A stretch of 64,000 bases of DNA from Psammoneis japonica (lineage: Eukaryota): positions 1 to 64,000 of the forward strand of contig QPGO01000225.1 in the NCBI GenBank assembly GCA_008632985.1, read 5' to 3'. Under the pieces are notes generated by a model. The model ran no database searches and was not told where the DNA came from. It worked only from the letters and a program-made list of their open reading frames with translations. A program made the translations under genes and the position numbers. The first letter of the stretch is position 1. Every line of letters starts with the position of its first letter. Below, piece after piece: positions 8,171-58,900 of this stretch.

Positions 8171-8229
8171 TTGAACATAAACCAGATCCACATTCTAGGC
8201 AGCTAAACCAATTTCACTTTAGTAAATTA

Positions 8230-26814: not shown

Positions 26815-26947
26815 AAAAAGGGAGGAGATGGGAATGCAAGAGAAGAATGGATGCGGAGCTTATACGCCGCTCCGCTTATATCGTACAAGTACATTGGCTC
26901 TTGCTCTAAAGTTGGGAAGGATCTATTCGACAGGGGTTGTGAATATC

Positions 26948-27397
26948 TTATTGCTCACAACTGTTTGGGACCCGCCGTGTGTCTGTTGCTTTTCCACTCA
27001 TTGCAACAAACCAGACCCCAGGATGGCATGAATGACTGCTAGGGAAATCGTGTCGATTGGATTTGAACACCATCACATCATAGAAGAGTTGGCATGGTGT
27101 GTAGCGAAGCTTTAGCACCATTACCCAGGTAAGTATCACTCACACTGATTGGGTGGTAGTTTTGGTTCTGACGTACGGCGACTCTAACATGGTTTAACCA
27201 ATAAATCTAGGCGACGCTTGTCGATGACTCATGCGGACCTGATGTGGCGGAGATTTGATCTGTTACGACATCACACAGTACGCTGTGCAGCAAAAGATGC
27301 GAAGTGGTAGTCCGGGAGATCCAGCATAGCTTACTTTCAATAGAATAATAGACTTGTACGTATTCAAAAAGAAACGAATCATTGTTGTGAGCAACAA
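26948..27397. mobile_element. ~450-bp element with terminal inverted repeats (LTR-like or MITE-like)
   Basis: TTGCTCACAAC at 26951-26961 is the reverse complement of GTTGTGAGCAA at 27384-27394. The right end is ...ACA, with an internal AATAAA. No target-site duplication seen. Confidence 0.4.
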
Positions 27398-27599
27398 CTT
27401 GTTCAATGCTAGGGCCCTATGGTGCTAGGACCCTGGTTTGTAGCCATGTTGTTGTGCTAGCTACCAAAAAGAAATGGGGCACCACAACAGCGCATAAGCT
27501 CTTACCATGTAAAACACTGAGGGCTCTGCTGTGTATAGTGCATTTGATGTCATACAACGGGTTTTAAGCGGTTGTGAGCGGCATCAGCATCAAGTTTGT

Positions 27600-33500: not shown

Positions 33501-33680
33501 ATCACTCATGGCCACAATCCGCGAAAGTGTGTGAGGGTGGTGAGTCAAAGTGCGAAGCGGGCGCTGGACCAAGGCACCGCGTTCCGCGGTTTAGTGGCTT
33601 GCTTGCATGCGCCATCCACAAGTTGCAGCACCGGCAGGTGCAGTGGGGCCCTGGCTGCTCTGCCAGTGGCTGGCAGGCCC
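27600..33680. other. TpA/CpG-depleted hypermutated domain
   Basis: TA nearly absent, contains a Gypsy remnant. Confidence 0.85.
28060..30400 (-). mobile_element. Ty3/Gypsy LTR-retrotransposon remnant (gag-like region, RT, RNase H), frameshifted
   Basis: LPRIQDIV.KRKGCKHFTKL, LELDEES, CFVDDV, KVNPLKCKWAVQETNFL, QLRSFVGAISCCRDMW, FEWTPACQKAFEEIK, DASDCQL, EKEMLA, VHTDHKNLTF. Confidence 0.9.
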
Positions 33681-34017
33681 TCTAGCTAGAGCCAGCTCCA
33701 CCATTCTAGGGCCCTCTCTCTGTCTGCGAAAACAGGGGGGGTGCCGACGGAAGAAGAGGGGGGGAGAGGGGGAGCGAAGCGACCCCGTTGCTGCTGCAAC
33801 AACAAGAGAGAAGGAAGGAAGAGAGGAGAAGAACGCAGCAATGGTGGAAGTGAGTGCAAGGTGCGTTGTGTTGTCGCATTTTCGTGGCGTTGAAGATGCA
33901 GATCATGAGCCTGTCGCGCATAAAAAATTTCCACGGTTGATTTTGTTCAGGCGCCACCGCCCCCCATTTCCCATCTTCCGTCTCGGCGCCAATTCGAGAT
34001 GCAACCATGGGCTGGAA

Positions 34018-37000
34018 TCAAAAGGCAAGCAATGAATCTACATTTAGAGACTGCTTTGATGAACACTGTTCATCGTGTGGTGCTCTTCCTCGAGCAGCCA
34101 CCCCCAACAAGTTTGTTTTTGAAAGATGGAATTCCCTCGCTCGGCAACAGCAGCATTTTTGGTTCAGATCCGACTGCAGATTCGGCGGCATCTGCAACAG
34201 CGGCAAAACTGTTGGCACACCATTCCAAAAGGGATTAACTTGAATCGGAGCACAATGTGGAACAGAACATGGATTGGGGCATGGTACAATCGGCACTGGT
34301 GGCAGCTGTCTTGGTGGAACAACCTCTTGCAAATTCGAAGGTTTCACTTTTTTCGCGCGCGGCTCCTCAGACGGCGGCGGTTGTTGAGACTTGGATTTTC
34401 TTTTGCATGGATTCTCCACACTTGCCATTGGGTTAGAATGGGTTGAACATGGGTTTCTTGTGCCACACTTGTTGCACATGCATCTGTCAGATTTTTTTCC
34501 GGATGCTGCTGCTGCTGCGCCGGTTGCAGCACTTCTTGTTTCGAGCTGCTCTCTCACGCGTTCCAATTGCTCCGGGCAAGCTGAAAAACACCGCTCACCA
34601 TCATCTTCTTTTAGTTCTTCGACATTCCCATGCACAGGATGGGGTGCTTCTGCTTTCTCTGCCAGCTTGTTGATGTGGTCAAGCTTGCTGTGGTTGAGAA
34701 AAGTGGGAACGCCTCGAAAGGCGCACGGAATCTTGGCGCGCTCGTCAGCCGTCAGTTCGTCTGTTCGGACACGCTCTCGCATTGACATGTTGCATTCACA
34801 CGTTCCTGCAAGGCACAGTGCATCTATCAGAGAGGATCTTGAACCAGTGTTTCCAAAATGCTTGACGACATGGTGACACTTTTCAAGCTTTGATTCCGTG
34901 CCAGTGGTTGTTACAAACGTGTCGAGCTTACACTTGGACCATTTTGAAGGCTTGACAACTCTGTGTGAGTCTTCACGTGGCAGCGGCTCATCAAGTCCAC
35001 GAGCCGACAATTTTGCGTTTTCAACCGCTGGCTTTGTATCTTCCGTAAAAAGCGGCTTCCCAGAGTCTGGGTCACACCGTCCGCCAGCTTCTGCCGCGCC
35101 GGGAGACGCAGAGCACTTGTGCCGATCGAACCAAGATTCCAGATGCTTGTTCCGTGTTTCGAGTGGGTAAGTCCACCTTCGAATGTACTTCTTGTAGTTG
35201 TTCCACTTCTCACTGTTCTTGATTTCCTCAATTTCTTCCGTCGTGTTCTTCTTCCCGCCAAGTTTCCCAAAGACAAGAGCATCAACTACCTTCGCCTCGT
35301 CGGATTCATCGTTGTACCGGACGCAATCCTTTAAATCACGAACCGCACGACAGCAATCAATGTGAGCACCTCGTAAAGTCCGAATGATGCGGTTTGTCCA
35401 GTGCCAAAGACCAAGCCTGCATGCAATGTCCTGACCAAAAATTTGCTTCCAAAACTCTTCCTTGTTGGGCCAAGCATCAGAGCAATGCACTTGAGGTTTG
35501 ACATTTGGACGCCTCGCAAACTGTTCAGCTGCATGCGCATGGTCTTTTGTTTCCAATGTTGGCACTGCTACAGCTGCACCAATCTCTCCAGTCTCTGTGG
35601 CCATGGTGAAGAGTCCCTTGCCGTTGTTGTCTTTGCAATTCTTCAATTGGTCAAAAGTGTGGTCGGACGCAACACTGATGCGACAACCAACGGATTGCAT
35701 TTCCCTCGTGTGCCGAATGTTGTCGCTTGTTCCGGTCTCGGTAAGGTTTGATTGCCGGACAAAATCATGCACATCTCTCACATTTTGTCCAGTGGGTCCA
35801 CAGCGACCGACCCAATCCTCGAACACCGACAAACCCGTCGCATTCCCTCCGCCAGCATCTTTTAACAAAGAATGGTAATTTTCCTCTTTATCAACAAAAG
35901 TCTCGCCTCTTTGTTGATGAAGAAAAGCAGACATGTCATCACCATTGCCACACTTCTTCATGGCATGGTCCACACATCGTGACGTTTCGAGCGACAGGTG
36001 AAAAGACGGATTCGCGGCTGTGCATCGTAGATCCACGGGATGGCTTGTTTGCAGAGGCCTCGGCAGCTTCTTAATTAGCTTGGGATCGTTCGCCTTGCAT
36101 TTACAGCCACATTTATTGCACTCATAGAGCATTGAGCTTGTCCAATCAGCAGCGCCACTAACTTTCAATGCTGGAGTCGGTGAACACTCCTTCTTGACAT
36201 CAAACTGCTGATGCATCATCTCGCCATCATCACATCCATCAACACATGGCAAAAACATGCCAATGAAGTTCAATTCCCAGCGGAGCAAATGGATTGTAAC
36301 GCCTTCAATCTCACTGCAGAGGTTGTCGGGAGTTTTGGTCATGTCATCACGTGGCACTGTAAATGACATGGCACCGGAAGGAAAATTCTTCTGACGCCAT
36401 TTAAGTTTCTTGGCATTCACCTCTCCGCCCATGATCTCATTCGAGTCCGCATGAAACCGAGATGGACACAAGTCCAGAAGGTGCAAAATCAAAGCCTGAA
36501 TGGGTGCAGGACAAGGAATCTTCTTTTTTTTACACGTTTCAATTCGTTTCCGAATCTCTCTCTTGAGCACCTCTCTAGAGAGAGGATCTTCTTCAACAAT
36601 GTTGCCAGAATGCTCCATGCTGTTCGACGTGACGGTGCTGATGGCAGCAGCAGTGGCGTTGGCAGCAGCGTTGGCAGCAGCAGTCGGCAACGAGACGGTC
36701 GTTGCAGATGGCTTGTTGTTTTTTGAAGCCCTGGTGCCATTGTGGAACAGTGCCTCCATGCCTTCCTCAGTTGGGGCCTGACAACCCGGCAGCTTTTTTG
36801 CGTTCTTTCTTGCGTCACCAGCAATGAAGCGATGGATGGCCGCGTTTCGCTCGGTGCTCATGTTCTTTCCATGGTGGATGGATTTTGGGCAGCTCGTGTC
36901 ATGACCCTTTTTGTAGGAGGGCCCTTGTTTGCACCTTTTGCACTCAACAACCTTTTCTTGAGTAGTGTGACTGTTTGGCAGAGTCAGAATTTGCAATTCT

Positions 37001-37356
37001 GCCTCCGCCGCCGGTGATGTTGTAAACCGAGGCGCATTTTTCCCCGACAACCCAGCGATTCCAGAAAAAGCTTGCTCCTTTGCTTTTTTCGTGGCTGCCT
37101 TTCGAGTCTGAGACTGAATGCCCATGGTGCTGGGAAGCTCATGGGAGAGATGCTTCTCCATTCTGCTGCAATTCCTTCTCTCAGAACTCTCTTGTGCAGG
37201 TCGGTGCTGATGATGAGTGAGATGAAAAAAGACGGGAGGAGTTTGAATTTTGTGTGTGGTGTCTTTGTCAGAGCGCCAGTGCTCAGACTGTGGCGCATCC
37301 GTCTGAGATGGATGAACCGAGGTGGCTGTGTCTGTGTTGCATTGATCGTCAAGCAA
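34018..37356 (-). CDS. Putative DDE transposase (MULE-related, SDHTF type), copy 1; ORF open but Tyr-eroded
   Basis: CxxC and CxxCxC zinc-binding segments. RNase H-like core VASDHTF..GLFTMATETGEI, second Asp in VHCSDAW, RLGLWHW (matching the C/DxxH motif), candidate Glu in GTESKLEKCHH. Real start is probably MGIQSQ at 37125. Confidence 0.6.
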   Translation of the reverse strand: MLDDQCNTDTATSVHPSQTDAPQSEHWRSDKDTTHKIQTPPVFFHLTHHQHRPAQESSERRNCSRMEKHLSHELPSTMGIQSQTRKAATKKAKEQAFSGIAGLSGKNAPRFTTSPAAEAELQILTLPNSHTTQEKVVECKRCKQGPSYKKGHDTSCPKSIHHGKNMSTERNAAIHRFIAGDARKNAKKLPGCQAPTEEGMEALFHNGTRASKNNKPSATTVSLPTAAANAAANATAAAISTVTSNSMEHSGNIVEEDPLSREVLKREIRKRIETCKKKKIPCPAPIQALILHLLDLCPSRFHADSNEIMGGEVNAKKLKWRQKNFPSGAMSFTVPRDDMTKTPDNLCSEIEGVTIHLLRWELNFIGMFLPCVDGCDDGEMMHQQFDVKKECSPTPALKVSGAADWTSSMLYECNKCGCKCKANDPKLIKKLPRPLQTSHPVDLRCTAANPSFHLSLETSRCVDHAMKKCGNGDDMSAFLHQQRGETFVDKEENYHSLLKDAGGGNATGLSVFEDWVGRCGPTGQNVRDVHDFVRQSNLTETGTSDNIRHTREMQSVGCRISVASDHTFDQLKNCKDNNGKGLFTMATETGEIGAAVAVPTLETKDHAHAAEQFARRPNVKPQVHCSDAWPNKEEFWKQIFGQDIACRLGLWHWTNRIIRTLRGAHIDCCRAVRDLKDCVRYNDESDEAKVVDALVFGKLGGKKNTTEEIEEIKNSEKWNNYKKYIRRWTYPLETRNKHLESWFDRHKCSASPGAAEAGGRCDPDSGKPLFTEDTKPAVENAKLSARGLDEPLPREDSHRVVKPSKWSKCKLDTFVTTTGTESKLEKCHHVVKHFGNTGSRSSLIDALCLAGTCECNMSMRERVRTDELTADERAKIPCAFRGVPTFLNHSKLDHINKLAEKAEAPHPVHGNVEELKEDDGERCFSACPEQLERVREQLETRSAATGAAAAASGKKSDRCMCNKCGTRNPCSTHSNPMASVENPCKRKSKSQQPPPSEEPRAKKVKPSNLQEVVPPRQLPPVPIVPCPNPCSVPHCAPIQVNPFWNGVPTVLPLLQMPPNLQSDLNQKCCCCRAREFHLSKTNLLGVAARGRAPHDEQCSSKQSLNVDSLLAF

Positions 37357-37756
37357 TGATGATGTGTGTTCTTTCAGAAAGCCCCAAGTGTTGCAGCGTG
37401 CATTCTTAGAATGAAGCGTTCTGATTGGTCCAATCTTCCATCGGCAGGGGGCTTTCGTCGGTCTGCGAAAACAGGGGGGGTGCCGACGGAAGAAGAGGGG
37501 GGGAGAGGGGGAGCGAAGCGACCCCGTTGCTGCTGCAACAACAAGAGAGAAGGAAGGAAGAGAGGAGAAGAACGCAGCAATGGCAGAAGTGAGTGCAAGG
37601 TGCGTTGTGTTGTCGCATTTTCGTGGCGTTGAAGATGCAGATCATGAGCCTGTCACGCACAAAAAATTTCCACGGTTGATTTTGTTCAGGCGCCACCGCC
37701 CCCCATTTCCCATCTTCCGTCTCGGCGCCAATTTGAGATGCAACCATGGGCTGGAA

Positions 37757-40700
37757 TCAAAAGGCAAGTGATGAATCTACATTTAGAGACTGCTTTGATG
37801 AACACTGTTCATCGTGTGGTGCTCTTCCTCGAGCAGCCACCCCCAACAAGTTTGTTTTTGAAAGATGGAATTCCCTCGCTCGGCAACAGCAGCATTTTTG
37901 GTTCAGATCCGACTGCAGATTCGGCAGCATCTGCAACAGCGGCAAAACTGTTGGCACACCATTCCAAAAGGGATCAACTTGAATCGGAACACAATGTGGA
38001 ACAGAACATGGAACGGGGCATGGCACAATTGGCACTGGTGGCAGCTGTCTTGGTGGAACAACCTCTTGCAAATTCGAAGGTTTCACTTTTTTTGCGCGCG
38101 GCTCCTCAGACGGCGGCGGTTGTTGAGACTTGGATTTTCTTTTGCATGGATTCTCCACACTTGCCATTGGGTTAGAACGGGTTGAACATGGGTTTCTTGT
38201 GCCACACTTGTTGCACATGCATCTGTCAGATTTTTTTCCGGATGCTGCTGCTGCTGCGCCGGTTGCAGCACTTCTTGTTTCGAGCTGCTCTCTCACGCGT
38301 TCCAATTGCTCCGGGCAAGCTGAAAAACACCGCTCACCATCATCTTCTTTTAGTTCTTCGACATTCCCATGCACAGGATGGGGTGCTTCTGCTTTCTCTG
38401 CCAGCTTGTTGATGTGGTCAAGCTTGCTGTGGTTGAGAAAAGTGGGAACGCCTCGAAAGGCGTGCGGAATCTTGGCGCGCTCGTCAGCCGTCAGTTCGTC
38501 TGTTCGGACACGCTCTCGCATTGACATGTTGCATTCACACGTTCCTGCAAGGCACAGTGCATCTATCAGAGAGGATCTTGAACCAGTGTTTCCAAAATGC
38601 TTGACGACATGGTGACACTTTTCAAGCTTTGATTCCGTGCCAGTGGTTGTTACAAACGTGTCGAGCTTACACTTGGACCATTTTGAAGGCTTGACAACTC
38701 TGTGTGAGTCTTCACGTGGCAGCGGCTCATCAAGTCCACGAGCCGACAATTTTGCGTTTTCAACCGCTGGCTTTGTATCTTCCGTAAAAAGCGGCTTCCC
38801 AGAGTCTGGGTCACACCATCCGCCAGCTTCTGCCGCGCCGGGAGACGCAGAGCACTTGTGCCGATCGAACCAAGATTCCAGATGCTTGTTCCGTGTTTCG
38901 AGTGGGTAAGTCCACCTTCGAATGTACTTCTTGTAGTTGTTCCACTTCTCACTGTTCTTGATTTCCTCAATTTCTTCCGTCGTGTTCTTCTTCCCGCCAA
39001 GTTTCCCAAAGACAAGAGCATCAACTACCTTCGCCTCGTCGGATTCATCGTTGTGCCGGACGCAATCCTTTAAATCACGAACCGCACGACAGCAATCAAT
39101 GTGAGCACCTCGTAAAGTCCGAATGATGCGGTTTGTCCAGTGCCAAAGACCAAGCCTGCATGCAATGTCCTGACCAAAAATTTGCTTCCAAAACTCTTCC
39201 TTGTTGGGCCAAGCATCAGAGCAATGCACTTGAGGTTTGACATTTGGACGCCTCGCAAACTGTTCAGCTGCATGCGCATGGTCTTTTGTTTCCAATGTTG
39301 CACTGCTACAGCTGCACCAATCTCTCCAGTCTCTGTGGCCATGGTGAAGAGTCCCTTGCCGTTGTTGTCTTTGCAATTCTTCAATTGGTCAAAAGTGTGG
39401 TCAGACGCAACACTGATGCGACAACCAACGGATTGCATTTCCCTCGTGTGCCGAATGTTGTCGCTTGTTCCGGTCTCGGTAAGGTTTGATTGCCGGACAA
39501 AATCATGCACATCTCTCACATTTTGTCCAGTGGGTCCACAGCGACCGACCCAATCCTCGAACACCGACAAACCCGTCGCATTCCCTCCGCCAGCATCTTT
39601 TAACAAAGAATGGTAATTTTCCTCTTTATCAACAAAAGTCTCGCCTCTTTGTTGATGAAGAAAAGCAGACATGTCATCACCATTGCCACACTTCTTCATG
39701 GCATGGTCCACACATCGTGACGTTTCGAGCGACAGGTGAAAAGACGGATTCGCGGCTGCGCATCGTAGATCCATGGGATGGCTTGTTTGCAGAGGCCTCG
39801 GCAGCTTCTTAATTAGCTTGGGATCGTTCGCCTTGCATTTACAGCCACATTTATTGCACTCATAGAGCATTGAGCTTGTCCAATCAGCAGCGCCACTAAC
39901 TTTCAATGCTGGAGTCGGTGAACACTCCTTCTTGACATCAAACTGCTGATGCATCATCTTGCCATCATCACATCCATCGACACATGGCAAAAACATGCCA
40001 ATGAAGTTCAATTCCCAGCGGAGCAAATGGATTGTAACGCCTTCAATCTCGCTGCAGAGGTTGTCGGGAGTTTTGGTCATGTCATCACGTGGCACTGTAA
40101 ATGACATGGCACCGGAAGGAAAATTCTTCTGACGCCATTTAAGTTTCTTGGCATTCACCTCTCCGCCCATGATCTCATTCGAGTCCGCATGAAACCGAGA
40201 TGGACACAAGTCCAGAAGGTGCAAAATCAAAGCCTGAATGGGTGCAGGACAAGGAATCTTCTTTTTTTTACACGCTTCAATTCGTTTCCGAATCTCTCTC
40301 TTGAGCACCTCTCTAGAGAGAGGATCTTCTTCAACAATGTTGCCAGAATGCTCCATGCTGTTCGACGTGACGGTGCTGATGGTAGCAGCAGTGGCGTTGG
40401 CAGCAGCGTTGGCAGCAGCAGTCGGCAACGAGATGGTCGTTGCAGATGGCTTGTTGTTTTTTGAAGCCCTGGTGCCATTGTGGAACAGTGCCTCCACACC
40501 TTCCTCAGTTGGGGCCTGATAACCCGGTAGCTTTTTTGCGTTCTTTCTTGCGTTGCTAGCAATGAAGCGATGGATGGCCGCGTTTCGCTCGGCGCTCATG
40601 TTCTTTCCATGGTGGATGGATTTTGGGCAGCTCGTGTCATGACCCTTTTTGTAGGAGGGCCCTTGTTTGCACCTTTTGCACTCAACAACCTTTTCTTGAG

Positions 40701-41094
40701 TAGTGTGACTGTTTGGTAGAGTCAGAATTTGCGATTCTGCCTCCGCCGCCGGTGATGTTGTAAACCGAGGCGCATTTTTCCCCGACAACTTAGCGACTCC
40801 AGAAAAAGCTCGCTCCTTTGCTTTTTTCGTGGCTGCCTTTCGAGTCTGAGACTGAATGCCCATGGTGCTGGGAAGCTCATGGGAGAAATACTTCTCCATT
40901 CTGCTGCAATTCCTTCTCTCAGAACTCTCTTGTACAGGTCGGTGCTGATGATGAGTGAGATGAAAAAAGACGGGAGGAGTTTGAATTTTGTGTGTGGTGT
41001 CTTTGTCAGAGCGCCAGTGCTCAGACTGTGGCGCATCCGTCTGAGATGGATGAACCGAGGTGGCTGTGTCTGTGTTGCATTGATCGTTAAGCAA
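37757..41094 (-). pseudogene. Putative DDE transposase, copy 2, frameshifted
   Basis: Same protein split into ORFs 39070..41094 and 37757..39376 by a 1-nt deletion at ~39300 (AATGTTGCAC versus AATGTTGGCAC in copy 1). Confidence 0.75.
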
Positions 41095-41449
41095 CGATGA
41101 TGTGTATTCTTTCAGAAAGCCCTAAGTATTGCAACGTGTATTCTTAGAATGAAGCGTTCTGATTGGTCCAATCTTCCATCGGTAGGGGGCTTTCGTCGGT
41201 CGGTCTGCAGAGTCGTGTGACTGTTGTCTGTTCTCTGACTGCATAAAAAGCGCGCCAAAATCTAAGTTTTTCCGCGCCTGCTCGCCCTCGTTCGATTTAT
41301 TTGGCTCACATTGGCCTTGTGTAAATACAGTAAATAGAAGTAATTTACCGCTTACCGCAATACTACAGTTGAAACAGAAGCGACAGAATATCTGTTGCGA
41401 AGATCCTTGACTTTAGTGTATAATCCCTCTAGAGAGATCCTTCTCTGCG

Positions 41450-41500
41450 ACTACAGTAGCTACTACTACTACTACTAGAGGCTAGCTACTACTCAAGTAG
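41450..41500. repeat. (TAC)n microsatellite and TA-rich low-complexity tract
   Basis: CTACAGTAGCTACTACTACTACTACTAGAGGCTAGCTACTACT. Confidence 0.85.
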
Positions 41501-41607
41501 AGAGGAGCAGTCCGGAGTGTGGTACTGTAGCTCTGAGGGGTAGCTCTGTTTGTCTGTAGGCTCATTCAGAGACATACCGTACGTCTGAACAACAAACTAC
41601 AAACAGC

Positions 41608-43477
41608 ATGAATCTTGAGATGCCATGGGGGAGCGCAAGTTGGTGGCAACATGAAGCACTCACCGTCAACGGCAAAGTCGCTGACCTGCCGCTTGATGCA
41701 GCAGGTGATGGTCGCGTGCTTGCCACAGTTAAAACTTATGATGGACGTAAAGCAAAATGGGGAGCCGAACAAGTGCTCGCACGTGTCGATGGCGACCGCG
41801 TCGACATTAAACTATCACCAGGTGGGCGTGTATCCATTTTTCCACAGGTTATTTCGAAGAAACAAGCACAAGAAGTTACCGAGGAACTTCTGGAAAAACC
41901 ACTCGGAGTCAACATTTTCCGTTCATACCCTATCCAAGGATTCAATCAAGAACCGCGACTCCACTGCCAGTTTCATGAAAACGCGACGCTCGACTTTGAT
42001 CAGAAACAACCTGGGTATCGATACAACAAGCGTACAACAGCAAAGGCTCGTCCACTTTCCATGGCACGAAAGTTAGAGGGACTGTCGAAACACATTGGTG
42101 AGAGGGTGGGAGTGCAAAAGTGGAATATTGGTGTCACTGCGGTTTTGTACAGGGGCGGACATGATAAAATGGGGCAGCATGCAGGTGAGAAAGCGGGAAA
42201 ATTCCAAAATGTGATGTGTGTATGAATACTTCGTTGTTGATGTACACGCGAGACCTTACGAACATTTTCATCGAAATTTACAGACGACGATCAAGGGGAG
42301 ACGAAAATTGTGGCGCTTGTGGTGGATGCTCCTACTGATGAGCCTCGTAAAGTCCTAATCAAGCCCAAAGTTGCCAACAAGTCGCTCCAAAGTGGGGATC
42401 AGAAAATCGAACTCATCCTGCAACCTGGTGATGCCTATATGATGGACGGTGCGTATTGAGTATTGATCTACCCTTAGTGAGCTCTTTGCTTCCTTGACAT
42501 TATAACTCACCAGAATTTCTTGTCGAACTTGAAACGTGCCAGGCGAAATGCAATTCTGGTGGACTCACGGAGTGGCTCGTATTCCAGAGAAGAAAAAGGA
42601 AGGTGTTGCGGCTGCCAATCGCAGACTTGCCATCATCTTTAGGGATGGCAACCACGTAGAATTCGACAAGGATTCAGGTTCTCCAAGTACAAGTTTGGAG
42701 CCAGTAAAGCCCTGCTCAGGTCCAACATTCGGCTCTGTCGATGGCATATGTGAAGGGCATGTGTACCCTAGAGTAGAGCTAGTGCAGAAACGCGGGCATT
42801 ATTCTCAACAAGGCGGCATTAGTGGCAACTCTAAACAGGGTTGTGACGCAATCATTGTTAGTGGGAAAAGGAAAGGAGATGACCAATTCTCCAAAATCAT
42901 GTATGCCGCAGAAACAAGAGTCGGAGCCAACGGATTGGTCCTTAGCTATCAGAAGCAATTACCTATTCGAGTTTTCCGTTCCAAGAAGTACCAAAGCTCC
43001 TTTCGAGCTGTCAGTGACTCTCCAAAGAAAAAGACACAAGAGATTTACCGGTATGACGGTCTTTATTTTATTGAGTCTTTCGTACCGAGCAAGAAGAAGG
43101 GTGGGTTGTTTCAGTTTCAACTCTGTCGTTGTGCTACAACTGCGGAGCCCGGAAAATCGACGTGGCGCAATGCTATTGACAGTTCTGCCTTCTACGAAAA
43201 ATGTCTTGCCTTGAGAACCATTCCGAACCATAAAATCAAAGACTACTACAAAATGTATGAAGCTGACATTATTGTGGAAGCTCAACGCGAGATGACGGAA
43301 GAGACGCTTGGTGTAATGCAACTTCTGAGTCTGAGGCAGTCGCATCCATCTCAACTACACGACTATTCTGACGACATTGTGCATGGTGATGTGGTCAGTA
43401 GTCTTGCTTCTTATCGTGACTTTGGCTGTGCCGAGATCCTGATGGACCTCAGTGAGATGGACATGGCGGCCGTTTAA
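41608..43477 (+). CDS. AlkB-like 2OG-Fe(II) dioxygenase fused to an SRA/YDG (SAD) domain; three exons
   Basis: Exons 41608-42184, 42284-42448 and 42543-43477 with GT-AG introns. Splicing restores LYRGGHDKMGQHA-DDDQGE (HxD), LQPGDAYMMD-GEMQFWWTHGV (distal His) and RRLAIIFR. SRA motifs follow: FGSVDGICEG, GH..QQGGISG...GCDAIIVSG, LPIRVFRS, YRYDGLY. Confidence 0.88.
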
Positions 43478-44105
43478 AGGAACAGTGGGCTAACCTTGTA
43501 TTAAAGAGAAATTGTTGTGTGAAATGGGGTAGCTTTTGAAGCTGTGGTGTTTCATAACAATACTGTCGCCGCTGAATGCGGGCGGGAGCAAGAGCATCAC
43601 TTTCTCGGAACATAACACCCTCCCATATGAACATTAGCACACAACACCACGCAATAGGAATCGATTCTTTATCGTTCCCGATCAAATCTCCCTTCAACCT
43701 TGTTGATGCAATCGCCGTTGCAGTATAGTACGAAACGGTTTTCTTCTAGTCAAGACCAATCTTGATGAGGAAGTTACTCAACTTGCGAGGTTGACGCATG
43801 AGGTTGTCCTGAGACATCTCTAGATAGAATATGCGAACTCTCTGGGAAGAAATTACCAGCAGAAAAAAAACTGCGAGCATAGCTACCCCGATTTCCAAGT
43901 TTCCCGCCACGACCAATCAAGGCTCCAACCAGGATATGATGAACAATGGTCCCTCCCTTATGCCAAGAATGGATACTACTGTGATTTATGTGATAAAGAG
44001 CGCTTCTACTTTATCAACTACAAGCTCCATTTTCGCCGGCGTTGAAGTCATCTTCAAGCCTTGCCAGTCCGACGCGGATCCCAACAGTTTTGACACGGCT
44101 GTACA

Positions 44106-44316
44106 AACAAGTGGCTTGCGGTGTTACCAATCATCCAAGCGAATATTTTGCTAGAGCAAAGTGACACAGCATCCGGTCCTTGTATTGTTGCCAAGGCGGT
44201 CCTCTACTTGACACCCTCAACAAGTGGCTTGCGTTGTTACCAATCATCCAAGCGAATATTTGCTCGAGCAAAATGACACAGCATCAGGTCCTTGTATTGT
44301 TGCCAAGGCGGTCCTC
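44106..44316. repeat. ~100-bp tandem direct repeat
   Basis: AACAAGTGGCTTGCG.TGTTACCAATCATCCAAGCGAATATTT...GGTCCTTGTATTGTTGCCAAGGCGGTCCTC occurs twice. Confidence 0.9.
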
Positions 44317-44757
44317 GAGTTCCCGCGTCCGACTCCTCGCATTGGAGAACTACGACGCCAACTCGCACCAACTACGACATCCCGACGACTGTGGCGACCG
44401 TCAACCGTGACGTCACGACATCTTTCAGTATGGAGCCTCCAACTCTACCGCCATAGTGATCCAGAGAGTGGTTCAGACAGTATTCCCGCCCTCATCGATG
44501 GTCCGCTGGATCTCTTGTCATCAACTAAAGATGGGCATACCCACAAGCCTGTGAAGAAACGAAAGTCGCGAAGGAAGGTCACACTAGTCAACCCTCAAAA
44601 GTTAAACATGCTGGCCAGTGACGAGACCTTGAGAGCGACCAACCGACGACACACAGAGGAGCGTCGCAAAAAGGAAAGGAGAGCAAGACAGCACAGTCAG
44701 CGGAAAGTGCTTACAACGGAAAGTTACAGTCCATCGGCAGCGCCCTCTGCTGTGATA

Positions 44758-45023
44758 ATATGCAGAGCCAGAAGGTGCTCTCGTTCCGTCCATACAGTTG
44801 CAACCTTATAAAGTAGACATGAACTTCTTCGTGTCGGGGTGTTCAAAAACAGCAAGTGTAGACTGCTATAGCTCGCGTCACTTGCGGATATGCAGAGCCA
44901 GAAGGTGCTCTCGTTCCGCCCATACAGTTACGAACTGATGAAGTGGACACGAACTTCTTCGCGTCGGGGTGTTCAAAAACAGCAAGTGTAGAAGTGTAGA
45001 CTGATAGCGCGCGCCACTTGCGG
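44758..45023. repeat. ~130-bp tandem direct repeat
   Basis: ATATGCAGAGCCAGAAGGTGCTCTCGTTCCG...GTCGGGGTGTTCAAAAACAGCAAGTGTAGA...CACTTGCGG occurs twice. Confidence 0.9.
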
Positions 45024-46500
45024 TGTCTTGCCGGCATTTGCAGTCATGTTGGCCTGTAGTAGGGACACATAATGATTGGGTAGTGCGTTTTGTAGCAACG
45101 TACAAATGGTAGGATTGCTTAGCCAGTGTTCTTCAACGAGTTGCAATGGATCCGTGGCCATGGATAGCGATTTCTGCATTTGTTCAAGGCTATTCTCCAG
45201 GTCGAGTGACGCGGATGGCGCCGTTGGCATGACCGATACCACGTTTGCGTCTCGCTCCGATCCCAGCATGTGTGTTGAAGGGACCGTCAAGGTGACGACA
45301 TCGGCAGTCTGTGCAGACCAATTTTCTGGAAGGATGTTGGCTTCCACAAAGACGTGCTTCGAGGGGTGCTGACGGCCCGACAAAGGTGGCTGATACACTC
45401 GTTGATTCTTCAAAATCCTCCACTGCGGTGGCGGTTGTGGTGTCATCCGATACGGGAGGTCGTTGCTGAATGAATGCTAAAGCTGCTGATTCAGGACTTG
45501 TGACGCATCACCCACCCGACGTGATGGCTTGCACAACCAGAGAATGCCGCACTTGAGCGGAATATTGAGAGACGACAATAAACGATGGCTGGCATCAGTG
45601 TTGCTGTTGCTTGAATAATGTAGACACCGAGTATGGATGGTCCTTGGCGCTGCTGTGAAAAGACTCCTTGCGAATGACCAGGTTTTAATCGGTCGAGCGG
45701 TCTCCATTCTTGCTGCATGCTTACAGGAATCAGTGAATATCCATAATGCGCTCGGATTCTTTGGAATAACCACGCGTATTGCAAGATTTAACTTCCGTCC
45801 AGCGAGCTCGTATATGTTTCACCTCTACAAGGATGCATTGGAGCCGGCAATTCCCACATGTACTGTCATTCGTGGAGATGCCACCGACGTGTCCGCGTCC
45901 CATCCCAGAGCAATATCAATATGCCCTTGATTAAAGCAGCACTGCCTGATTGGAAAATCTTCCGGCACCATAACTATTGCTCCCTTCTCGTTTCAAGTAC
46001 TGGAATTTGCCAAGACGCATACATTCACCACGGAGGAGGCATCGGGAGATAAGGACCCTCCCCACGAATTGCGTTTCCCAGAGTAGAGATAGGCTGTTAA
46101 TTGGTAAGAAACTTCACAACGCGAATCACCTCGTTGGCAACGCATCGTTCCAGGCAATTCTCCGGGAAGCTCCCATTCAAAAGGATACTCGTACTGCCCT
46201 GTTTCGATGGTTCCTGTTTCGTACTGATTAAGAGGCACGTCCAGATGCACCAGCGACGTGGTGGAGCGTTCAATTTCTGTATAGCTCTCGTGAGTCCGAT
46301 TTCGCCGATGCTCTGTATCATGCGCCACCGCTCATACCTCTTCTCCCTTTAAAAGTGAATGAACGACCTGTGCCCGTCGTCCTTCTTGACCCGTTACAGA
46401 CAGATAGACATATCCCTTCAACACACCGCAGCGATTCATAGCTAGGTAGCCTGTTCCAACTTGACTCCGATCTTGACGGGTTTGCTTCCCAGTTTGATGC
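44973..46500 (-). pseudogene. Arrestin-domain (alpha-arrestin-like) pseudogene
   Basis: LKGYVYLSV..LKGEEV, GQYEYPFEWELPGELPGT..CEVSYQLTAYL, then PIRQCCFNQGHIDI and a downstream PTAP motif. In-frame TGA stops at ~46332 and ~45993, with further disruptions downstream. Confidence 0.7.
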
Positions 46501-49500
46501 TTCTTGGACGTTTCAGAATGACTTAGGGGCTCTCGGATGGTTTTATTAACAGATTTTCCCACTGACTTTGCTGCTATTCCGCTCATAAGATAAGTTCTAG
46601 GGCCCTAATCTTGTTTGTTCTATTGCGTTGTTGTGTGGTAAATGATTCCGTGATGAGAAGGTCGCATGTAGAAAAGTAGGGCCTTGAGGAGACGAATGTA
46701 CGAGCAGGTCATCGGATGGAGCTTGAGGAGCTACTCCACTCTAGGGCCCTAACTCTACTGTACCGCATGTATCCACACTCCACTCTAGCTGGAATAGCTC
46801 CTCTATTCTCTTTCTACGTTATAGTAGACCTACCGGTAGTAGCTAGAGAGATTTGACAGAGACGATGAGTTGTGGTGGGAACTAACAAGTGGCTGAACCA
46901 AGCAGACGAATGGATGGGCCAACCTGTCAGCAGACGCAGCAACTCAAAGGCCCATGATCTGTTTCCATGTACTGGAAGAGGGTAGCAGGGTAGCATCCGG
47001 GAAATTCTTTCGCTAATTGAGTTACACCGGAAGTAAAAGCCACACGTTTTGAGCAAACGTCAGGCACCAAAAGACAAGAACCAAAAGACAAGCACCAACA
47101 CAGCGTTTTCGTGGGGCGAACACCGTTCATTGTTCTACCACGCGTCTTAGTGGTAGAATGACATTCGCATTGTGCTTGAGGATAAGCCTTGAGCAATAAA
47201 GCTTGTAGCCCTAAGGTTACAACCACAACGGAGGAGACCGGTCTCCGGTGCGGGTTCTTGTATCCTTGTGAGCTCGCTTGGCGGTTTGTTTGGGTGTGAA
47301 ATAAATACACAGAAAATTTTTTTTGTTCCACGTGGCATGTCTCTCGTCCTCATGTGATTTTAAAAATCGAGAATTTGCTTCCAAGAAAATTGACAATGAG
47401 CAGGTTCAACGTTCTACCGGTCCAAAGCAGCAGCTCACAGTACAAGAGAGTTGGTGACATCCGTTTCCAGATTCGAGAAGTGACATTGTTGCACCCCATG
47501 CTTTGGTCGGCTGTGAATGACAGAGCACAGAGTCCAGCACAAGGCTTCACGTGTTGCCGATGATTCCCGATTCGACGCACAAACTCGTTGTTTTTGGAGA
47601 ATCGCAGGAACAAACGCTTTTCCCGAAAATTTCCCAATCCCCAACAAGACTGCAGCTTGCAAGCGAGTTCGTGCTCATCGTACTCTCTCCATCCGTGTCC
47701 GTGAACGATACAGCGTGTCTGTCGGTCACTACGACCCTTCTTCAAGCTCACAACATCAAGAAACCGGACCGACGGGGGACGCATGTAATTGCATCATTTG
47801 TTATATCATTGAAGGTTGAGTGTAATTTGGCGGCCAATATGATTGGACAAGCCATGGCGGCTGTTCCGAGTCAATCACGGAAAGCGACTCCGTGGGGTGG
47901 TGCAAATGACGGGAGAACACGGTATTATGAATACTAGGACGTAAAAAGTGCTTCTTAATGGCGTACTTCCATTCAGGAGGAGCTTTGGTCAAAAGAAAGG
48001 ATGGATTAGACTATGATATACCCCAAACAATATCAGTTTCGGTAACTACGTTGCTCAATTTTCACGACATTCATACTATTGACACAGAGCACATGCAGAA
48101 GAGCGAGATGACAGCTTCGTATTCTTTGCCGATTCTGATTGGGCGGCTCATTGGACGCCCGGAAAGACGGAGAGTAAGAGGGGCGGTCGCAAACCAACCA
48201 ACTCCCACTTCTGTCGACACGGCAAAACGGCTCGCTACCACTGTAGACGTCAACAGATTTGCAGGGGGGGGGCTTCACAACACGAAGTCAAAGCACTGTG
48301 GTGGTGTTGGGGGCGACGAACAGGATGGCAACGATGGAGAGAATACACAGAGCATCTCGAAGCTAAAGATTCTGTACCAAATGAGTGCAACGGAGAAGGA
48401 CATTGTGAGCGACGAGGTATATTTGGTAAGACACTATTGCACAGAAGATCGCATCTTAAACAAAGGGCAAACTTACATTGATACACCCAAAATTTCATCA
48501 TGCTTGCACGCGAGATAGTGTATGAAGTTGCTACGTGCATTGACGGGCGTAAAGTGTCAGAGAGAAATAATGTCGTTGCCGAGGAAACACGTAATGGCCA
48601 ACATGCCACGATGGGTTCAGACGTTTCAGCGACTCACAGGAGGAATAAATGAGAAGGAGGCAGCCTCAACAGAAGGAGTCGGTCATAAAGCCTGTTCACG
48701 CTCGAATCGTGTTTGCTCTGAAGCGTACCGCTCCATCATTTTCCAGCGCGGAGGCAAGAAAGAAAGCTCTACGGCATTTAGACAAGAGCTGAAAGGAAAG
48801 GTGAAGGCTGTGAAGATTTGTCTCAGGGTATACCGTACTGTACTGTACGAACCTAAAGCAAACAAAAAGCGCACCGGGACGTCGTTTTTCTGATGTCAAA
48901 CGATGATCTGGGTGCATGACTGACGACTACGCCACTCGCTTCCTTCGTGTTTCTTGCAATATGATCATGGTGTTATCAGAGTCTTTCGTCAAGCTCGTGG
49001 GGCAACACAGGAGCCTGATTCTTGGACTTCTGCGAGCGACAGTCATCCACGTTATAAGATGGTTCGCAAAAAGATTGGGATGGAAGATTGTGCACACTCT
49101 ATTGCCAACTGGGAAGCTTACTGCAAGAAGAAAGTTCCCGCCTCGTTGGTGACTCGAGTATGTGACATGCATTGATCAGCGGCGGCCCGATTATCTGGAT
49201 ATTCTTCACGCGCCAAACCACACAACTCTGATTTCTCAGCTATCTACTAAAATGTCAGTGACAATATCTCAAAGGAGAACCATCGCTCTGCTACTGCGGG
49301 TATAGCTGGATGTATCATGCCAGGCGCCCAGCGGCGTTCGTCACATGAAGAATTTCAAATGTCTGACGGCAACGAACAGGCCACCAGTGGTGCTAAAGAA
49401 ACATTTTTGGAACTCTTTCAAGTAATCCCTACTAATTTGCAATGTATAGCCTGCCATATTCGCTAATATTTAAAATGGCCGACCAACAACCGGCCTAGAA

Positions 49501-49532
49501 TTGGCACTAGAACATCTGCATAGCTCTATCGA

Positions 49533-50546
49533 TTACCTTTTTCTTCTTTTTTTCCTTTCTCCCACTCTGCTTTCTATGCGGTCTATACATTCCTTCAGTG
49601 AAGCAAGAAGATCGTCGCCCGGGATTTGAAAGACTTGCTGAACCTCGTCCAATGTCTCGTTTCGATCCTTTTCTCTAATGTGAACATGTAGCCGAACTGA
49701 ATCTGGGTTCACAGCTCCGTAGTGTAGTTTGTAGTCGTCCAACCACGCAAAGCAATTGGCGGGAATGACCTCATTGACAAATGCAACTCCTCCAGAATGG
49801 CGAAAGGCATTGTTCTGTTTGGCAAGATGAGGTAGTTGCTCGTGTGGGTCACCAACAGCAACAGTGCCAATGAGGCAGTCCCTCCCTAACAAGTTGTAGA
49901 TCATGGTGCCAGATTCTACACCTGATCCTTTTTGAGATTCTCCGGTATTGGCATCGGTGTGAACCGCTTGATCTTGCGATCCAAAGGCTATCAAGGTGAT
50001 CTTCGTCACTTCACATTTCTTACTGGCCGGCAACCCAAACGCCCAACGATGATCACTGGTCACACGCTTGATAGTTTCATTTATCATGGCGATGTGTTTT
50101 GATCGTTTCTTTTCCATGTTCGGAGCAGCTGGGTATCTCTCCGTCCCATTCTTGCAGTAGACAATGCGTTGCGGCCTGTGATCCACTCCATGCTTTTTTT
50201 TCACCTCCTTTGAAAACGGATCGTCAAACTCGATCATGGCATCACCCTCACCTTTGTCACTACGCTTTGCCATGGGACGGTTTTGATGAGCAAATGACTT
50301 TGCATAATTCTCCAATCCCGGTACGGAAGCAACAGCTGAAATTGAAGGGGCAACGGCAAAACCATCAACAGGCATGACGTGACCGACATTGGCTAGTCTT
50401 GATTTGTTCGAGGCATCAATCGTTTGCTGTTTTTTTCTTGAGCGGGTTCCCCCAGGGTTTTTCGTGCGTCGCTTGTCATCCACCGTCATTTCCACATCTC
50501 CCTCCGCTTGCTTTTGCAGCTGCCTTTTCTTGGAGCCCTTGCCCAT
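49533..50546 (-). CDS. Putative 2OG-Fe(II) dioxygenase (PhyH-like fold) with basic termini
   Basis: Intact ORF with normal Tyr use, QDQAVHTD (HxD), LHYGAVN (distal His), VRLHVHI (Arg), NLS-like RKKRRKR C-terminus. An upstream exon is possible. Confidence 0.6.
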   Translation of the reverse strand: MGKGSKKRQLQKQAEGDVEMTVDDKRRTKNPGGTRSRKKQQTIDASNKSRLANVGHVMPVDGFAVAPSISAVASVPGLENYAKSFAHQNRPMAKRSDKGEGDAMIEFDDPFSKEVKKKHGVDHRPQRIVYCKNGTERYPAAPNMEKKRSKHIAMINETIKRVTSDHRWAFGLPASKKCEVTKITLIAFGSQDQAVHTDANTGESQKGSGVESGTMIYNLLGRDCLIGTVAVGDPHEQLPHLAKQNNAFRHSGGVAFVNEVIPANCFAWLDDYKLHYGAVNPDSVRLHVHIREKDRNETLDEVQQVFQIPGDDLLASLKECIDRIESRVGERKKRRKR

Positions 50547-50663
50547 GTTCACTGCTAACAACCTGCAACGCGCAACGCAGATTTTGTTTCTATATATATT
50601 TTAGAGGTTGAAATGCATGTTGTGGGTTGTGGGTTGTGTGGTGGAAGAGTTATTGCGCGGAGG

Positions 50664-50916
50664 TTCATCGTGGAACCCCACAAATACGCGGGGACCCGTA
50701 ACCCGGAAATGTGTAGAGTTGTACGTGCATGTATGGGGACTCTTTACGTAGGTTTTGTACCAGAGCTATCTCGCGAACTAGGCGTTTTTTCGAAATTTTG
50801 TCGTAGAAACTGTACCAGTTTTGCGTATGTAGGCTACATGTTTCAGTACCACATACAAAAATGAGCGTAGACCTCTACAGGAGGGTCCCCGCGTATTTGT
50901 GGGGTTCCACGATGAA
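50664..50916. repeat. Perfect 34-bp inverted repeat with a 185-bp spacer (MITE-like or hairpin)
   Basis: TTCATCGTGGAACCCCACAAATACGCGGGGACCC at 50664-50697 and its exact reverse complement at 50883-50916. Confidence 0.92.
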
Positions 50917-50929
50917 GGTGCTTTCGCTT

Positions 50930-53388
50930 GGGGATGGAGACAAAAAACAAAAAAGGGTGGGCCGAAAGTACGGACAGACGGTCGAGAGGATGAGTTGGAT
51001 GGCTTGGCTGGCGGGTGACAGCAGGATGGCAAAGAAAAGAGTTTGGCATGTGGAGAGATGATCGGAGAGAGCAAAGCCCCAAAGTTGAGGCTGAGGATTT
51101 GAGAGGCCCAGAGTTGAGGGGTTGCAGTGTGACAAGAGGAGCTGAAGCGGTCCGGCGAAAGTTGTTTCCAGGCCGCATCATTGGAGTGGGCGAGGGGGTT
51201 GGAAGGTGTGAGAGCAGGGAGTTGGCGAAAGTGGAGAAGGGTGCTTGAGAGTTGGAAAGGGAGGGTGGGCTTGTCCAGGGTGGTTTGGGAGGAGGAAGGG
51301 GTGGGAAGGAGGAGGATGTTGTGGTGGAGGTGCAGAAAAAGAAGACGTAGAAATGACACCCAACTGCTCCAAGGTGGTCAAATGTGAGAGGAAGGAGGGG
51401 GAGCCCAGCTTGGTTGACAGTGTCAATGACATCAGAGCCATGGGCAGATGGCGCAGAGTGACCAAGAAGCTTGTCCCATGCACTGCTGAGGTGAGCCTTT
51501 TTAATGGGTTTTCAAGGACAGGCAAGCCAGGTGCAGGAGTCGGGGGAGCTGGTGGTGCAGCGACGTCAATGGCCAAGAACTGGTGGGTTGATGGGGCGTT
51601 TGGTGGTGCAGAGCCAGGAATGAGTTGAACACCAACATCGGCAGGGCATTTGAGGGGGTCGTCAGCCAAGAGGTTGGCAGGGTCAAGGTGAGCCAGTTGG
51701 CGGGAAAGGCATGAACCACAAAGAGGGCCCAGTGTTTCGATGACACGGTGCAAATGGTGTCGCAAATGTGATTTGACAGAGGGCCTTCATGCATTTTAGA
51801 TCATTCAAAGGCATGGTCTCTGCAAGGGTCTGGGTGGGTGTGGCTGCATGGGCAGTTGTGCTGGAGCAGATTTGGGGGAATCATTGGAAGGTGCAGCTTG
51901 CACAGGAGGAGAAGCAGTGCAAATGAGTTTGATGGGAGCCGGTTGGAGGCAGGAGCTCAGAAAAGGGAGTGAAGGCACAGGCTTGTTGGCGGAGACAGCA
52001 GGGATGGAAGAGCTGGTTGCATGGAGGGATCTGAGGAAGAGTGCTGTTCTTGTGATGACACAGGTGAGTGCACTGTGCAAGGCCGTGCAGGTTGTGGTGT
52101 TTGACAGCATGTGTCAAAGAGGTGAAAGAAGGACGAGAGTCAAACCACCAAAGGAGGATGTGGGAGTGCAGCAGCGGAAGATGCAACAGAGGGAAAGGAT
52201 GGAGCATGGGTTGACATGTTCCAGCTGCACGTGAACCAAATCGTGCACAAAAATGACTTTTGCGCAATTTCCGTGGGGTCTCTGACTTGCGACCTGGCTT
52301 TCTCCACCAAAAGCACAGATTTGTGCAAATTTGAATGTTTTGCAACACTGACAAGACTCGCGTCAGTGTTGCAACATCATTGCTCATGTGCAATCTGCTT
52401 TTTTTTGTTGCAACAAATGAGCTGCAATGCAACGGATGATTTTTGGTGAAATCATTGCCGTTGTTGTGATGTCAAAATTTTCCTGCGATGATGTCTGGCA
52501 TGGGTTCTGCCTGCAGACAAATCTCTGCACACAATGTGCTGTCATGCAATCAGCATTGAGTCTGCTGAGGAAGTTTGTTGTGCATTGCCCCCATGAGGAC
52601 TTGCATGCCAATGGAAAAACCAATTAAATGTTGACACTCTGGACACCTGCAAAAACACATCCACTCAAGTGTTTCATGTGCAAATGCTCCATGCACGAGA
52701 GACACACAATTTACATTCAAAATTGATTGTTGTTTTGTGCATCACCTGGGACTGGAACACGTTGGTCAGACCATGAGCCAAGAGCAGCAGAGTGGCTCAA
52801 AGGGAGATGAAAGACATTGCCGCGGGTGAGTGGGATGCTGTGTTCAGTGTGACGCATGGATCTGGTGAGAGAGGCTGTGAGAGCTGGGGTGGTGACAGTG
52901 GAGACATCACGGCAGCCGACACTGCCCAATGATTTGGATGGGCTGGCAATGAGTTTGGTGGTGGAGGGGAGTGTGGGTTGGTGTGTTGGGCAAGGCAGGC
53001 AAGGAAATGCAGGGAGCGGCCGATGATTTTGTTGGTGAAAGGAGATGTCCATTGGAAAGGTTGTGGGTGGTTGCTGGATCATTGCACAAGGTTGCAGCAT
53101 GCATCAGCTGACAGAAGATGAGCAATGGAGGGGATGGAGCATTTGCTGAAGAGCGTGCTTTGTGTTTGCTTGTTGGCAAGGTGGGCGGTGAGGTGGTGGA
53201 GGTCTGTGGCAAAGGAGGCAGCTTTGTCACAGAAGAAGTTCATGGCAAAGGCAAATGAGCCAACAGGCCAGCCAAGGAAGCGGATGCTGGCGGTGATTTC
53301 AGGTTTGTTGTGTGGGTCGTTGTTGGGATTGAGAAAGCAAGGGCTTCCAAGAGGGCATTGGCATTGGTGGCTGGAAGGCTGGCAGCCA
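50930..53388 (-). mobile_element. Non-LTR retrotransposon (CRE-like, RLE type), 3' part: RT thumb, zinc knuckle, restriction-like endonuclease
   Basis: IRFLGWPVGS..F, CSIPSIAHLL, FHLPL, NHICDTI (H..IRD), KCPADV...LAIDV (RPAD..DV), LLPLTFDHLGAVG. Confidence 0.7.
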
Positions 53389-58249: not shown

Positions 58250-58900
58250 CCAACAAAGGCAGTTGATGGGAGAGGTGCTGGTTGCAGATGTGAGAATTTG
58301 TGTTTTGGAGGCATTGAGCTTGATTCCAAATTGGGGGCCACAGGGCAAGCATCACAAGAGCATTTGTTGAAGCAGTTGGAAATGTCAAGGAGAAGGAGAG
58401 CTTTTGGTGCAGAGTCTGGTTGAAAGAAGCATCCAATGTTGGTGCAAGCAGCACCCACAAGGTGTGGTTCAGGCCGCCTTTGACACCAATGACCCCAAAT
58501 TGGCCAGAGATGAGGAGGTTGGCAGCAAAGGTGGCAGCAAGGAGGAACACAATGAGGGTGCACAGACGACCCTCCGCAGGGCTGTTCCAGCACTGACCAG
58601 TCAGAGTTTGGAAAGGTTGGATGAACCCTTGTGTGGGGCAAGGAAACAGTTGGATGAAAAAAGAGGTTTGATGGATGTGGGGATGTCTGCTGCAAGAATG
58701 AGGTCAAGCAAGCCTTTGAAAGTGAGCAGGCAGGGGTGTGAGGAGGACATTGGTGCAGAACGGCCATGAAGGGCATGGCCTTGAAGAGGTCAGTGGAGTC
58801 GGCAAAGGCACCGGGCACTTTGCATCTTGTCCACATGTCAACACAGGCTCAAGCTGCAAGCTCAGTTGCAGCAGGCAGGTGGGTCAGTGCAAAATTTTGA
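58250..58900 (-). mobile_element. Non-LTR retrotransposon RT, N-terminal motifs
   Basis: GTALRRV (RPI..G..LRR), GQFGVIGVKGGL, ALLLLDISNCFNK (RT motif A). Confidence 0.7.

Follow-up and report, generated by a model that had tools for sequence, protein, structure and literature searches.

The stretch of Psammoneis japonica DNA described here, 64,000 nucleotides (nt) of contig QPGO01000225.1 and referred to as the window, carries a three-exon gene at 41608-43477 on the + strand that encodes a protein of 558 residues. This AlkB-SRA gene is almost certainly intact and spliced, and its product combines an N-terminal Fe(II)/2-oxoglutarate dioxygenase of the ALKBH2/3 type with a C-terminal SRA domain, a base-flipping reader. 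The exons and introns are arranged as follows.

41608..42184, + strand: exon 1, residues 1-192 and base 1 of codon 193; N-terminal extension and first half of the AlkB beta-helix, ending with H191-A192
42185..42283, + strand: intron 1, 99 nt, phase 1, GTGAG...ACAG; interrupts the HxD motif within its Asp codon
42284..42448, + strand: exon 2, completes D193, then residues 194-247 and base 1 of G248; central AlkB strands
42449..42542, + strand: intron 2, 94 nt, phase 1, GTGCG...CCAG; splits the Gly codon after MMD
42543..43477, + strand: exon 3, completes G248, then residues 249-558 and TAA; last AlkB strands, linker, SRA domain and helical acidic tail in one open frame

Gene structure and splicing

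Translation starts at the ATG at 41608-41610 and ends at the TAA stop at 43475-43477. The joined exons comprise 1677 nt in frame, with the terminal codon as the sole stop. Both introns are of the GT-AG type, with donors CAG/GTGAG and ACG/GTGCG and acceptors ACAG/ and CCAG/ (the slash marks the junction). Reading resumes in the same frame after intron 1 and one frame over after intron 2. Intron 1 holds an in-frame TGA, and its retention would therefore shorten the protein. The distal metal-binding His, the RxxxxxR motif and the SRA domain are all located in a single uninterrupted exon, within the open reading frame (ORF) 42533-43477, so that oxidase and reader form one coding unit whatever the introns do. 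The reading of the two domains as separate genes, which the earlier note on this DNA had set out as the alternative to a fusion, was rejected because the end of the AlkB domain and the SRA domain share this exon.

The spliced protein aligns with fused homologues without a gap at either junction; the joined sequence reads HADDDQGE at intron 1 and MDGEMQ at intron 2. Single high-scoring segment pairs of ~420-475 residues, which cover residues ~34-480 of the window protein, connect it to fused homologues at 37-42% identity and with E values down to 9e-98. The GT-AG introns, the open 1677-nt frame and the gap-free alignment over both junctions bear out the three-exon model put forward in the earlier note.

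The positions of the introns were surveyed in 154 relatives, which are evidently ORFs called on genomic contigs. At intron 1, 84 of the 154 have the motif that ends in H-x; 75 of these 84 continue with Asp and have Gln three residues on. The other nine break after H-x into G, unrelated residues and a stop, exactly the pattern that read-through of a phase-1 GT intron gives. At intron 2, GDAYxMDG was found in 74 relatives, of which 46 continue into MQxxYxH by pattern and two more on inspection, and 26 break off exactly at the intron position. A column was taken as conserved where 85% or more of 39 homologues share the residue. The window protein matches the consensus in 75 of 81 such columns, or in 76 if the Asp of the split codon is counted, and departs from it by L to Q, E to Q, Y to W, P to A and V to I. 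The gene is under maintenance and is no relic.

A family of two-domain proteins

Exon 3 matched six longer database proteins, all six of which carry both PF13532 and PF02182; three of them are labelled 'alkylated DNA repair dioxygenase AlkB' by JGI (Joint Genome Institute). An exhaustive search with exon 1 yielded 226 representatives at E <=1e-3. Domains were counted in the 54 relatives of at least 400 residues among the best 150 of these 226 matches (hereafter the long relatives). Of the 54, 41 have both domains, with AlkB preceding SRA. Another 12 carry the AlkB domain only, several of them cut at an intron and one with DUF6824, and one is a spurious cadherin protein. The fusion described in the earlier note is thus corroborated by the shared exon, by the single segment pairs to fused homologues and by this count.

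Three of the 41 fused relatives add an SGF29 tudor domain (P0081, P0100 and P0112) and one adds DUF6824, which is carried by P0139 and P0084. The addition of SGF29 tudor, a histone-mark reader, or of DUF6824 points to a chromatin role. No transposase domain was found in the 54 long relatives.

Family members are widespread among environmental sequences from eukaryotes. P0003 and P0008 were used to scan metagenome contigs, where they detected no relative. The family alignment detected five loci in viral contigs, and the two inspected encode SRA-HNH proteins and not AlkB fusions. These two, at L005 8022-8984 (+) and L001 7767-8879 (+), lie on viral or prophage contigs and are nucleases of the TagI type.

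The AlkB oxidase domain

The oxidase half of the protein contains the following elements.

41830..42649, + strand: dioxygenase domain of the AlkB type, Fe(II)- and 2-oxoglutarate-dependent, residues ~75-283, split by the two introns; identified by Pfam, PDB profile and fold
42178..42285, + strand: metal-binding HxD, formed by H191 (42178-42180), A192 and D193 (42184 and 42284-42285) and followed by D194-D195-Q196
42566..42568, + strand: distal metal-binding His, H256, invariant in 39 of 39 homologues
42623..42643, + strand: 2-oxoglutarate-binding R275-x5-R281, both Arg residues invariant in 39 of 39 homologues

Intron 1 divides the HxD Asp codon into a G at 42184 and an AC at 42284-42285, which agrees with the split motif of the earlier note. 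The full catalytic set that it had claimed is also present: H191, D193, H256, R275 and R281 are complete, and all five residues are invariant in the 39 homologues.

Pfam PF13532 (2OG-FeII_Oxy_2) matches residues 75-192 of exon 1 with an E value of 2.3e-7 and 31.6 bits compared with a cut-off of 31.2. This match is partial (profile 2-113 of 194) and its score is barely over the cut-off because the remainder of the domain lies in exons 2 and 3. Full-length relatives reach 45-80 bits across profile positions 2-194. Exon 1 alone gave no match in PDB. The family alignment A1, which comprises 39 homologues and the three window exons, was searched as a profile against PDB; the only AlkB homologues that its oxidase half matched at E <=0.01 were ALKBH3 (1.6e-7) and ALKBH2 (2e-3). 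The AlphaFold model of homologue P0020 (447 residues, 41% identical to the window protein) has a predicted local distance difference test score (pLDDT) of 93 and a predicted template modelling score (pTM) of 0.88. Foldseek searches with this model retrieved ALKBH3 with single-stranded DNA (ssDNA) bearing 3-methylcytosine (3mC) and ALKBH2 on double-stranded DNA, with template modelling (TM) scores of 0.76-0.82. The predicted fold is the AlkB double-stranded beta-helix, as judged on P0020 rather than on the window protein. The oxidase half is nearest to human ALKBH3 and ALKBH2 by sequence and fold, a placement that comes from the best PDB matches and not from a tree.

Human ALKBH3 and ALKBH2 (PDB 8jnr, 2iuw, 3rzl and 3s57) are the closest solved relatives of the oxidase and share its HxD...H and RxxxxxR motifs. 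However, the identity is only ~15-22%, the human enzymes have no SRA domain, and the family possesses an additional N-terminal beta region and conserved motifs of its own. An acidic residue, D195, is located two positions past the metal-binding Asp. Acidic residues after HxD are typical of enzymes that act on charged N1/N3 lesions, and the equivalent residue in AlkB, ALKBH2 and ALKBH3 presumably contacts the exocyclic amine of 1-methyladenine (1mA) or 3mC. The TET and JBP enzymes likewise use Fe(II) and 2-oxoglutarate to oxidise DNA bases, which makes a functional analogy possible, but they form a separate family; Tet_JBP had no Pfam match in the window protein or in the 54 long relatives.

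The SRA domain

The reader half is encoded by exon 3.

42728..43135, + strand: SAD/SRA (YDG) domain, residues 310-445; Pfam PF02182, PDB match to TagI, fold matches to TagI, SUVH and UHRF
43052..43060, + strand: YDG motif, Y418-D419-G420, within YRYDGLY (43046-43066)

Pfam PF02182 (SAD_SRA) matches residues 62-197 of exon 3 with an E value of 4.2e-17 and 62.7 bits compared with a cut-off of 30.7. The match covers profile positions 2-146 of 148, and the SRA/YDG domain is complete, as the earlier note had stated. In PDB, window exon 3 matched TagI at 4.6e-8, and the reader half of the A1 profile matched TagI at 1.7e-18, followed by SUVH6, SUVH5 and UHRF1 at ~1e-8. The fold matches of the P0020 model also include TagI and the SRA domains of UHRF1 and UHRF2 (Foldseek). 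Window exon 3 folded alone gave a poor mean pLDDT of 55.5; its SRA core, at 65-90, still retrieves the SRA domains of TagI, SUVH and UHRF proteins. The SRA fold and the base-flipping core are present. The second Tyr (Y340) and the Asp (D333) in P0020 numbering, together with the YDG core, are conserved in the family.

The pocket exhibits certain discrepancies from the solved readers. In the HMMER alignments, a non-conserved stretch of the family, SGKRKGDD in the window protein, stands opposite the GGY of UHRF1 and TagI. The canonical pocket combines an Asp with two Tyr that stack on flipped 5-methylcytosine (5mC), and GGY supplies one of these Tyr. In UHRF1, 41 residues separate the pocket strand from the helix that precedes PVRVVR; the family profile has five positions for them (HMMER), so that ~36 residues are absent. 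The UHRF1-type finger loop, expected after the pocket strand and ahead of the helix that leads to P-[IV]-R-V, is therefore missing from the family. In UHRF1, the finger segment plugs the gap left in the duplex and probes the opposite strand. With the GGY Tyr variable and no finger-loop segment, reading of 5mC is unproven, and the sequence does not support the earlier note where it treated the domain as a 5mC reader. The SRA domain is divergent, and neither 5mC specificity nor hemimethyl discrimination can be assumed.

TagI (PDB 6ghs), a bacterial SRA-HNH modification-dependent restriction enzyme, is the closest solved SRA protein by sequence and fold. In contrast to the family, its reader is paired with a nuclease, keeps the Tyr of GGY and has 16 extra residues in the same loop region relative to the family profile. 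The SRA domains of UHRF1, UHRF2 and the plant SUVH proteins share the fold and the YDG core, but are attached to other partner domains; UHRF1 also differs in the GGY Tyr and in the ~36 finger-loop residues.

Relation to published fusions

The AlkB-SRA architecture is not new and has been known from comparative genomics since 2015/16, as the earlier note had suspected. In the sections at hand of Iyer, Zhang and Aravind (2016, BioEssays, PMC4738411), AlkBH3 'shows fusions to ... SAD/SRA', and SAD/SRA fusions of the AlkBH3-related group are listed from two stramenopiles. The same sections suggest N6-methyladenine (m6A) demethylation for AlkBH3-clade fusions and for fungal SAD-AlkB proteins. In the corresponding part of the supplement, the fungal proteins are written SAD+AlkB-2OGFEDO, with the reader first and often with a zinc ribbon, and the stramenopile fusion is called independent. 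These published fusions, together with DUF6824, a domain linked with diatoms, suggest a stramenopile or diatom-like origin for the gene.

The window gene resembles the stramenopile fusions of PMC4738411 in that an AlkB domain from the neighbourhood of ALKBH3 is joined to SAD/SRA in a protist, and the prediction, action on modified DNA, is the same. Those sections count two species and give no function beyond the m6A suggestion, whereas the family described here has at least 41 two-domain clusters. What the present analysis adds is a family of at least 41 clusters at 50% identity that is intron-bearing and well conserved and whose reader most resembles the bacterial TagI type. The fungal SAD+AlkB group likewise unites these two kinds of domain in a single protein; however, its reader is N-terminal in the text available, whereas the window gene and its relatives have AlkB followed by SRA. 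Feature-based look-alikes of homologue P0038 are Ascomycota 2-oxoglutarate proteins at 0.83-0.84 only, which is a lead and no more. No functional study of any AlkB-SRA protein was found in the literature, including the available portions of PMC3265494, PMC13297926 and PMC9998398. As a candidate for targeted repair or erasure at methylated DNA, the AlkB-SRA protein is sound but not new.

Predicted function

From its domains, the protein is predicted to perform SRA-tethered oxidative demethylation on methylated chromatin, probably the repair of 3mC and 1mA, a tentative reading to which we give slightly less than an even chance. The SRA domain would tether the enzyme to DNA that contains a modified base, most simply cytosine-methylated chromatin, and the AlkB domain would then remove the N-methyl lesions 3mC and 1mA by oxidative demethylation. 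Direct-reversal repair would be concentrated where DNA methyltransferases (DNMTs) act and yield 3mC as a by-product. The choice of 3mC and 1mA is supported by the kinship of the oxidase with ALKBH2 and ALKBH3, which repair these lesions, and by the acidic residue D195, and the chromatin context by the three of 54 long relatives that add an SGF29 tudor domain. The rationale for repair at methylated DNA is provided by the review of Sarkies (PMC9246332), which states in the part at hand that DNMT1/3 co-evolve with ALKB2 and that DNMTs make off-target 3mC. If the protein indeed joins a methyl-mark reader to a lesion-reversing oxidase, it would be physical evidence for on-site 3mC repair, for which the evidence in that part of the review is based on co-evolution.

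Several points weigh against this repair reading. ALKBH3 prefers single-stranded substrates and RNA, which is a poor fit with the reading of duplex DNA. The SRA domain is divergent at the GGY Tyr and the finger loop, so 5mC may not be its ligand. The assignment of the oxidase to the ALKBH2/3 clade is provisional, as it derives from best matches and not from a tree, and the CpG-poor blocks of the window give only a hint of cytosine methylation in the source organism. For the fungal version, Iyer et al. suggested m6A in the sections cited above (PMC4738411).

The AlkB domain might instead act as a TET-like 5mC oxidase: the SRA domain would find 5mC, and a nearby 5mC or one on the opposite strand would be converted to 5-hydroxymethylcytosine (5hmC), 5-formylcytosine or 5-carboxylcytosine. 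The SRA fold is the classical reader of 5mC and 5hmC, the fusion is recurrent and conserved, and AlkB, ALKBH2 and ALKBH3 oxidise 5mC in vitro according to the available text of PMC6582317. However, the active site resembles that of lesion-repair AlkB enzymes (HxD-D-D, kinship with ALKBH2/3), a single base cannot occupy both pockets simultaneously, and the SRA pocket is divergent; this reading is unlikely. Demethylation of N6-methyladenine on DNA or RNA, with a divergent SRA domain that reads methyl-adenine and not 5mC, is a little less likely still. It conflicts with the acidic residue after HxD, a feature of enzymes for charged N1/N3 lesions, and with an SRA domain that scores well against the SAD_SRA model and is nearest to TagI, a cytosine-modification-dependent enzyme, although the domain is without the canonical pocket and finger features and this activity is the one proposed in the cited part of PMC4738411 for AlkBH3-clade fusions and fungal SAD-AlkB proteins. 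A general ALKBH3-like repair enzyme for ssDNA and RNA, to which the SRA domain adds merely non-specific nucleic-acid affinity, would be consistent with ALKBH3 as the closest solved relative and with the absence of the duplex-reading finger loop of UHRF1. The strong conservation of the SRA core motifs in the family and the SGF29 tudor readers of some members make this improbable.

A pseudogene, or a mis-joined model in which the domains are not expressed as one protein, is very improbable: the end of the AlkB domain and the SRA domain share one exon, splicing at canonical, conserved sites leaves an open frame, and the protein retains the consensus in 76 of 81 conserved columns. We give equally little credence to a mutator or editor behind the blocks of the window that are poor in TpA and CpG, and to a passenger of the neighbouring duplicated element. 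Adjacency is what speaks for them: a tandem duplication ends 413 nt before the gene, and the window for the most part contains hardly any TpA. However, the gene is outside the duplicated unit, in a compositionally normal island and in single copy in the window, and its relatives have no transposase domain; the passenger was rejected on its position and normal composition. Oxidative demethylation also offers, as far as we infer, no known route to TpA transitions. For the role in the TpA signature that the earlier note had envisaged there is no sign other than this adjacency, and no known AlkB chemistry would produce such transitions.

In lineages without TET, the AlkB-SRA family might erase or edit the base methylation of chromatin by oxidising 5mC or another methylated base beside the base flipped by the SRA domain, and such an enzyme would be an independently evolved reader-eraser in one polypeptide; we regard this joint claim as doubtful. 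The bolder extension, that AlkB-SRA serves the base chemistry behind the nearly TpA-free, CpG-poor blocks, is much less likely. If the enzyme oxidises 5mC or N6-methyladenine instead of N-methyl lesions, methyl-mark erasers would have arisen independently a second time.

The neighbouring tandem duplication

A head-to-tail tandem duplication precedes the AlkB-SRA gene, with copy A at 33719-37457 and copy B at 37458-41195; the copies are 98.5% identical. The gene starts 413 nt past the end of the duplication and occurs once within the 64-kb window. The duplicated unit is nearly filled by an ORF of 1207 residues in copy A (34018-37641, - strand), and the counterpart of this ORF in copy B is split by a 1-nt deletion (opposite 35561). 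The 1207-residue ORF matches no Pfam family even at E 10. A feature-based protein atlas gave only a lead, to DUF6729 clusters (0.94, 198/256 features) and to Mutator-like clusters (0.80). The earlier note had described a transposase duplication next to the gene; the duplication is confirmed as a 98.5% identical pair, whereas the transposase label is unconfirmed given the negative Pfam result.

The two copies differ by 55 substitutions, 53 of which are transitions. Interconversions among the pyrimidine-purine (YpR) dinucleotides CA, TG, CG and TA make up 47 of the substitutions. TA stands against CA or TG at 18 sites (TA in copy B at 14 and in copy A at 4). CG stands against CA or TG at 19 sites, and CA against TG at five, as adjacent double differences. 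For want of an outgroup, these counts give no direction of change. The differences between the copies look like ordinary transitions at YpR steps.

Composition of the window

Approximately two thirds of the window consist of blocks with 0-4 TpA per kb and an observed/expected ratio (O/E) for TpA of 0.00-0.10, compared with 0.23 for the whole window. In these blocks, the CpG O/E is 0.05-0.6 and CpA/TpG stands at 1.6-2.0. The AlkB-SRA gene is located in the normal island at 41-51 kb, with a TA O/E of 0.56 and a CG O/E of 0.90.

1-8000, 11001-22000, 28001-33000 and 51001-64000: TpA-poor blocks
33001-41000: intermediate composition
8001-11000, 22001-28000 and 41001-51000: compositionally normal islands

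The TpA-poor blocks are opposite to the outcome of fungal repeat-induced point mutation, which makes TpA. No paper on TpA-free repeat blocks was found in the literature, and Rfam gave no match in the window. An ORF of 918 residues, rich in Pro, Ser and Thr (54734-57490, - strand), lies inside a TpA-poor block. This ORF and 13 ORFs of 200-310 residues, most of them in or beside TpA-poor blocks, had no Pfam match. Long frames in TpA-free DNA are weak evidence for genes because TAA and TAG cannot occur there.

A dispersed direct repeat within a TpA-poor block (53380-53679 and 57855-58154) is 89% identical between its copies, which are 4475 nt apart. Two short tandem repeats are found ~0.6-1.5 kb downstream of the AlkB-SRA gene, at 44106-44316 (112 nt x 1.9) and 44758-44992 (130 nt x 1.8). 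The genes of the normal island at 22172-26814 encode a Kelch-repeat protein, a protein with ankyrin repeats and an AAA ATPase domain, and an alpha/beta hydrolase.

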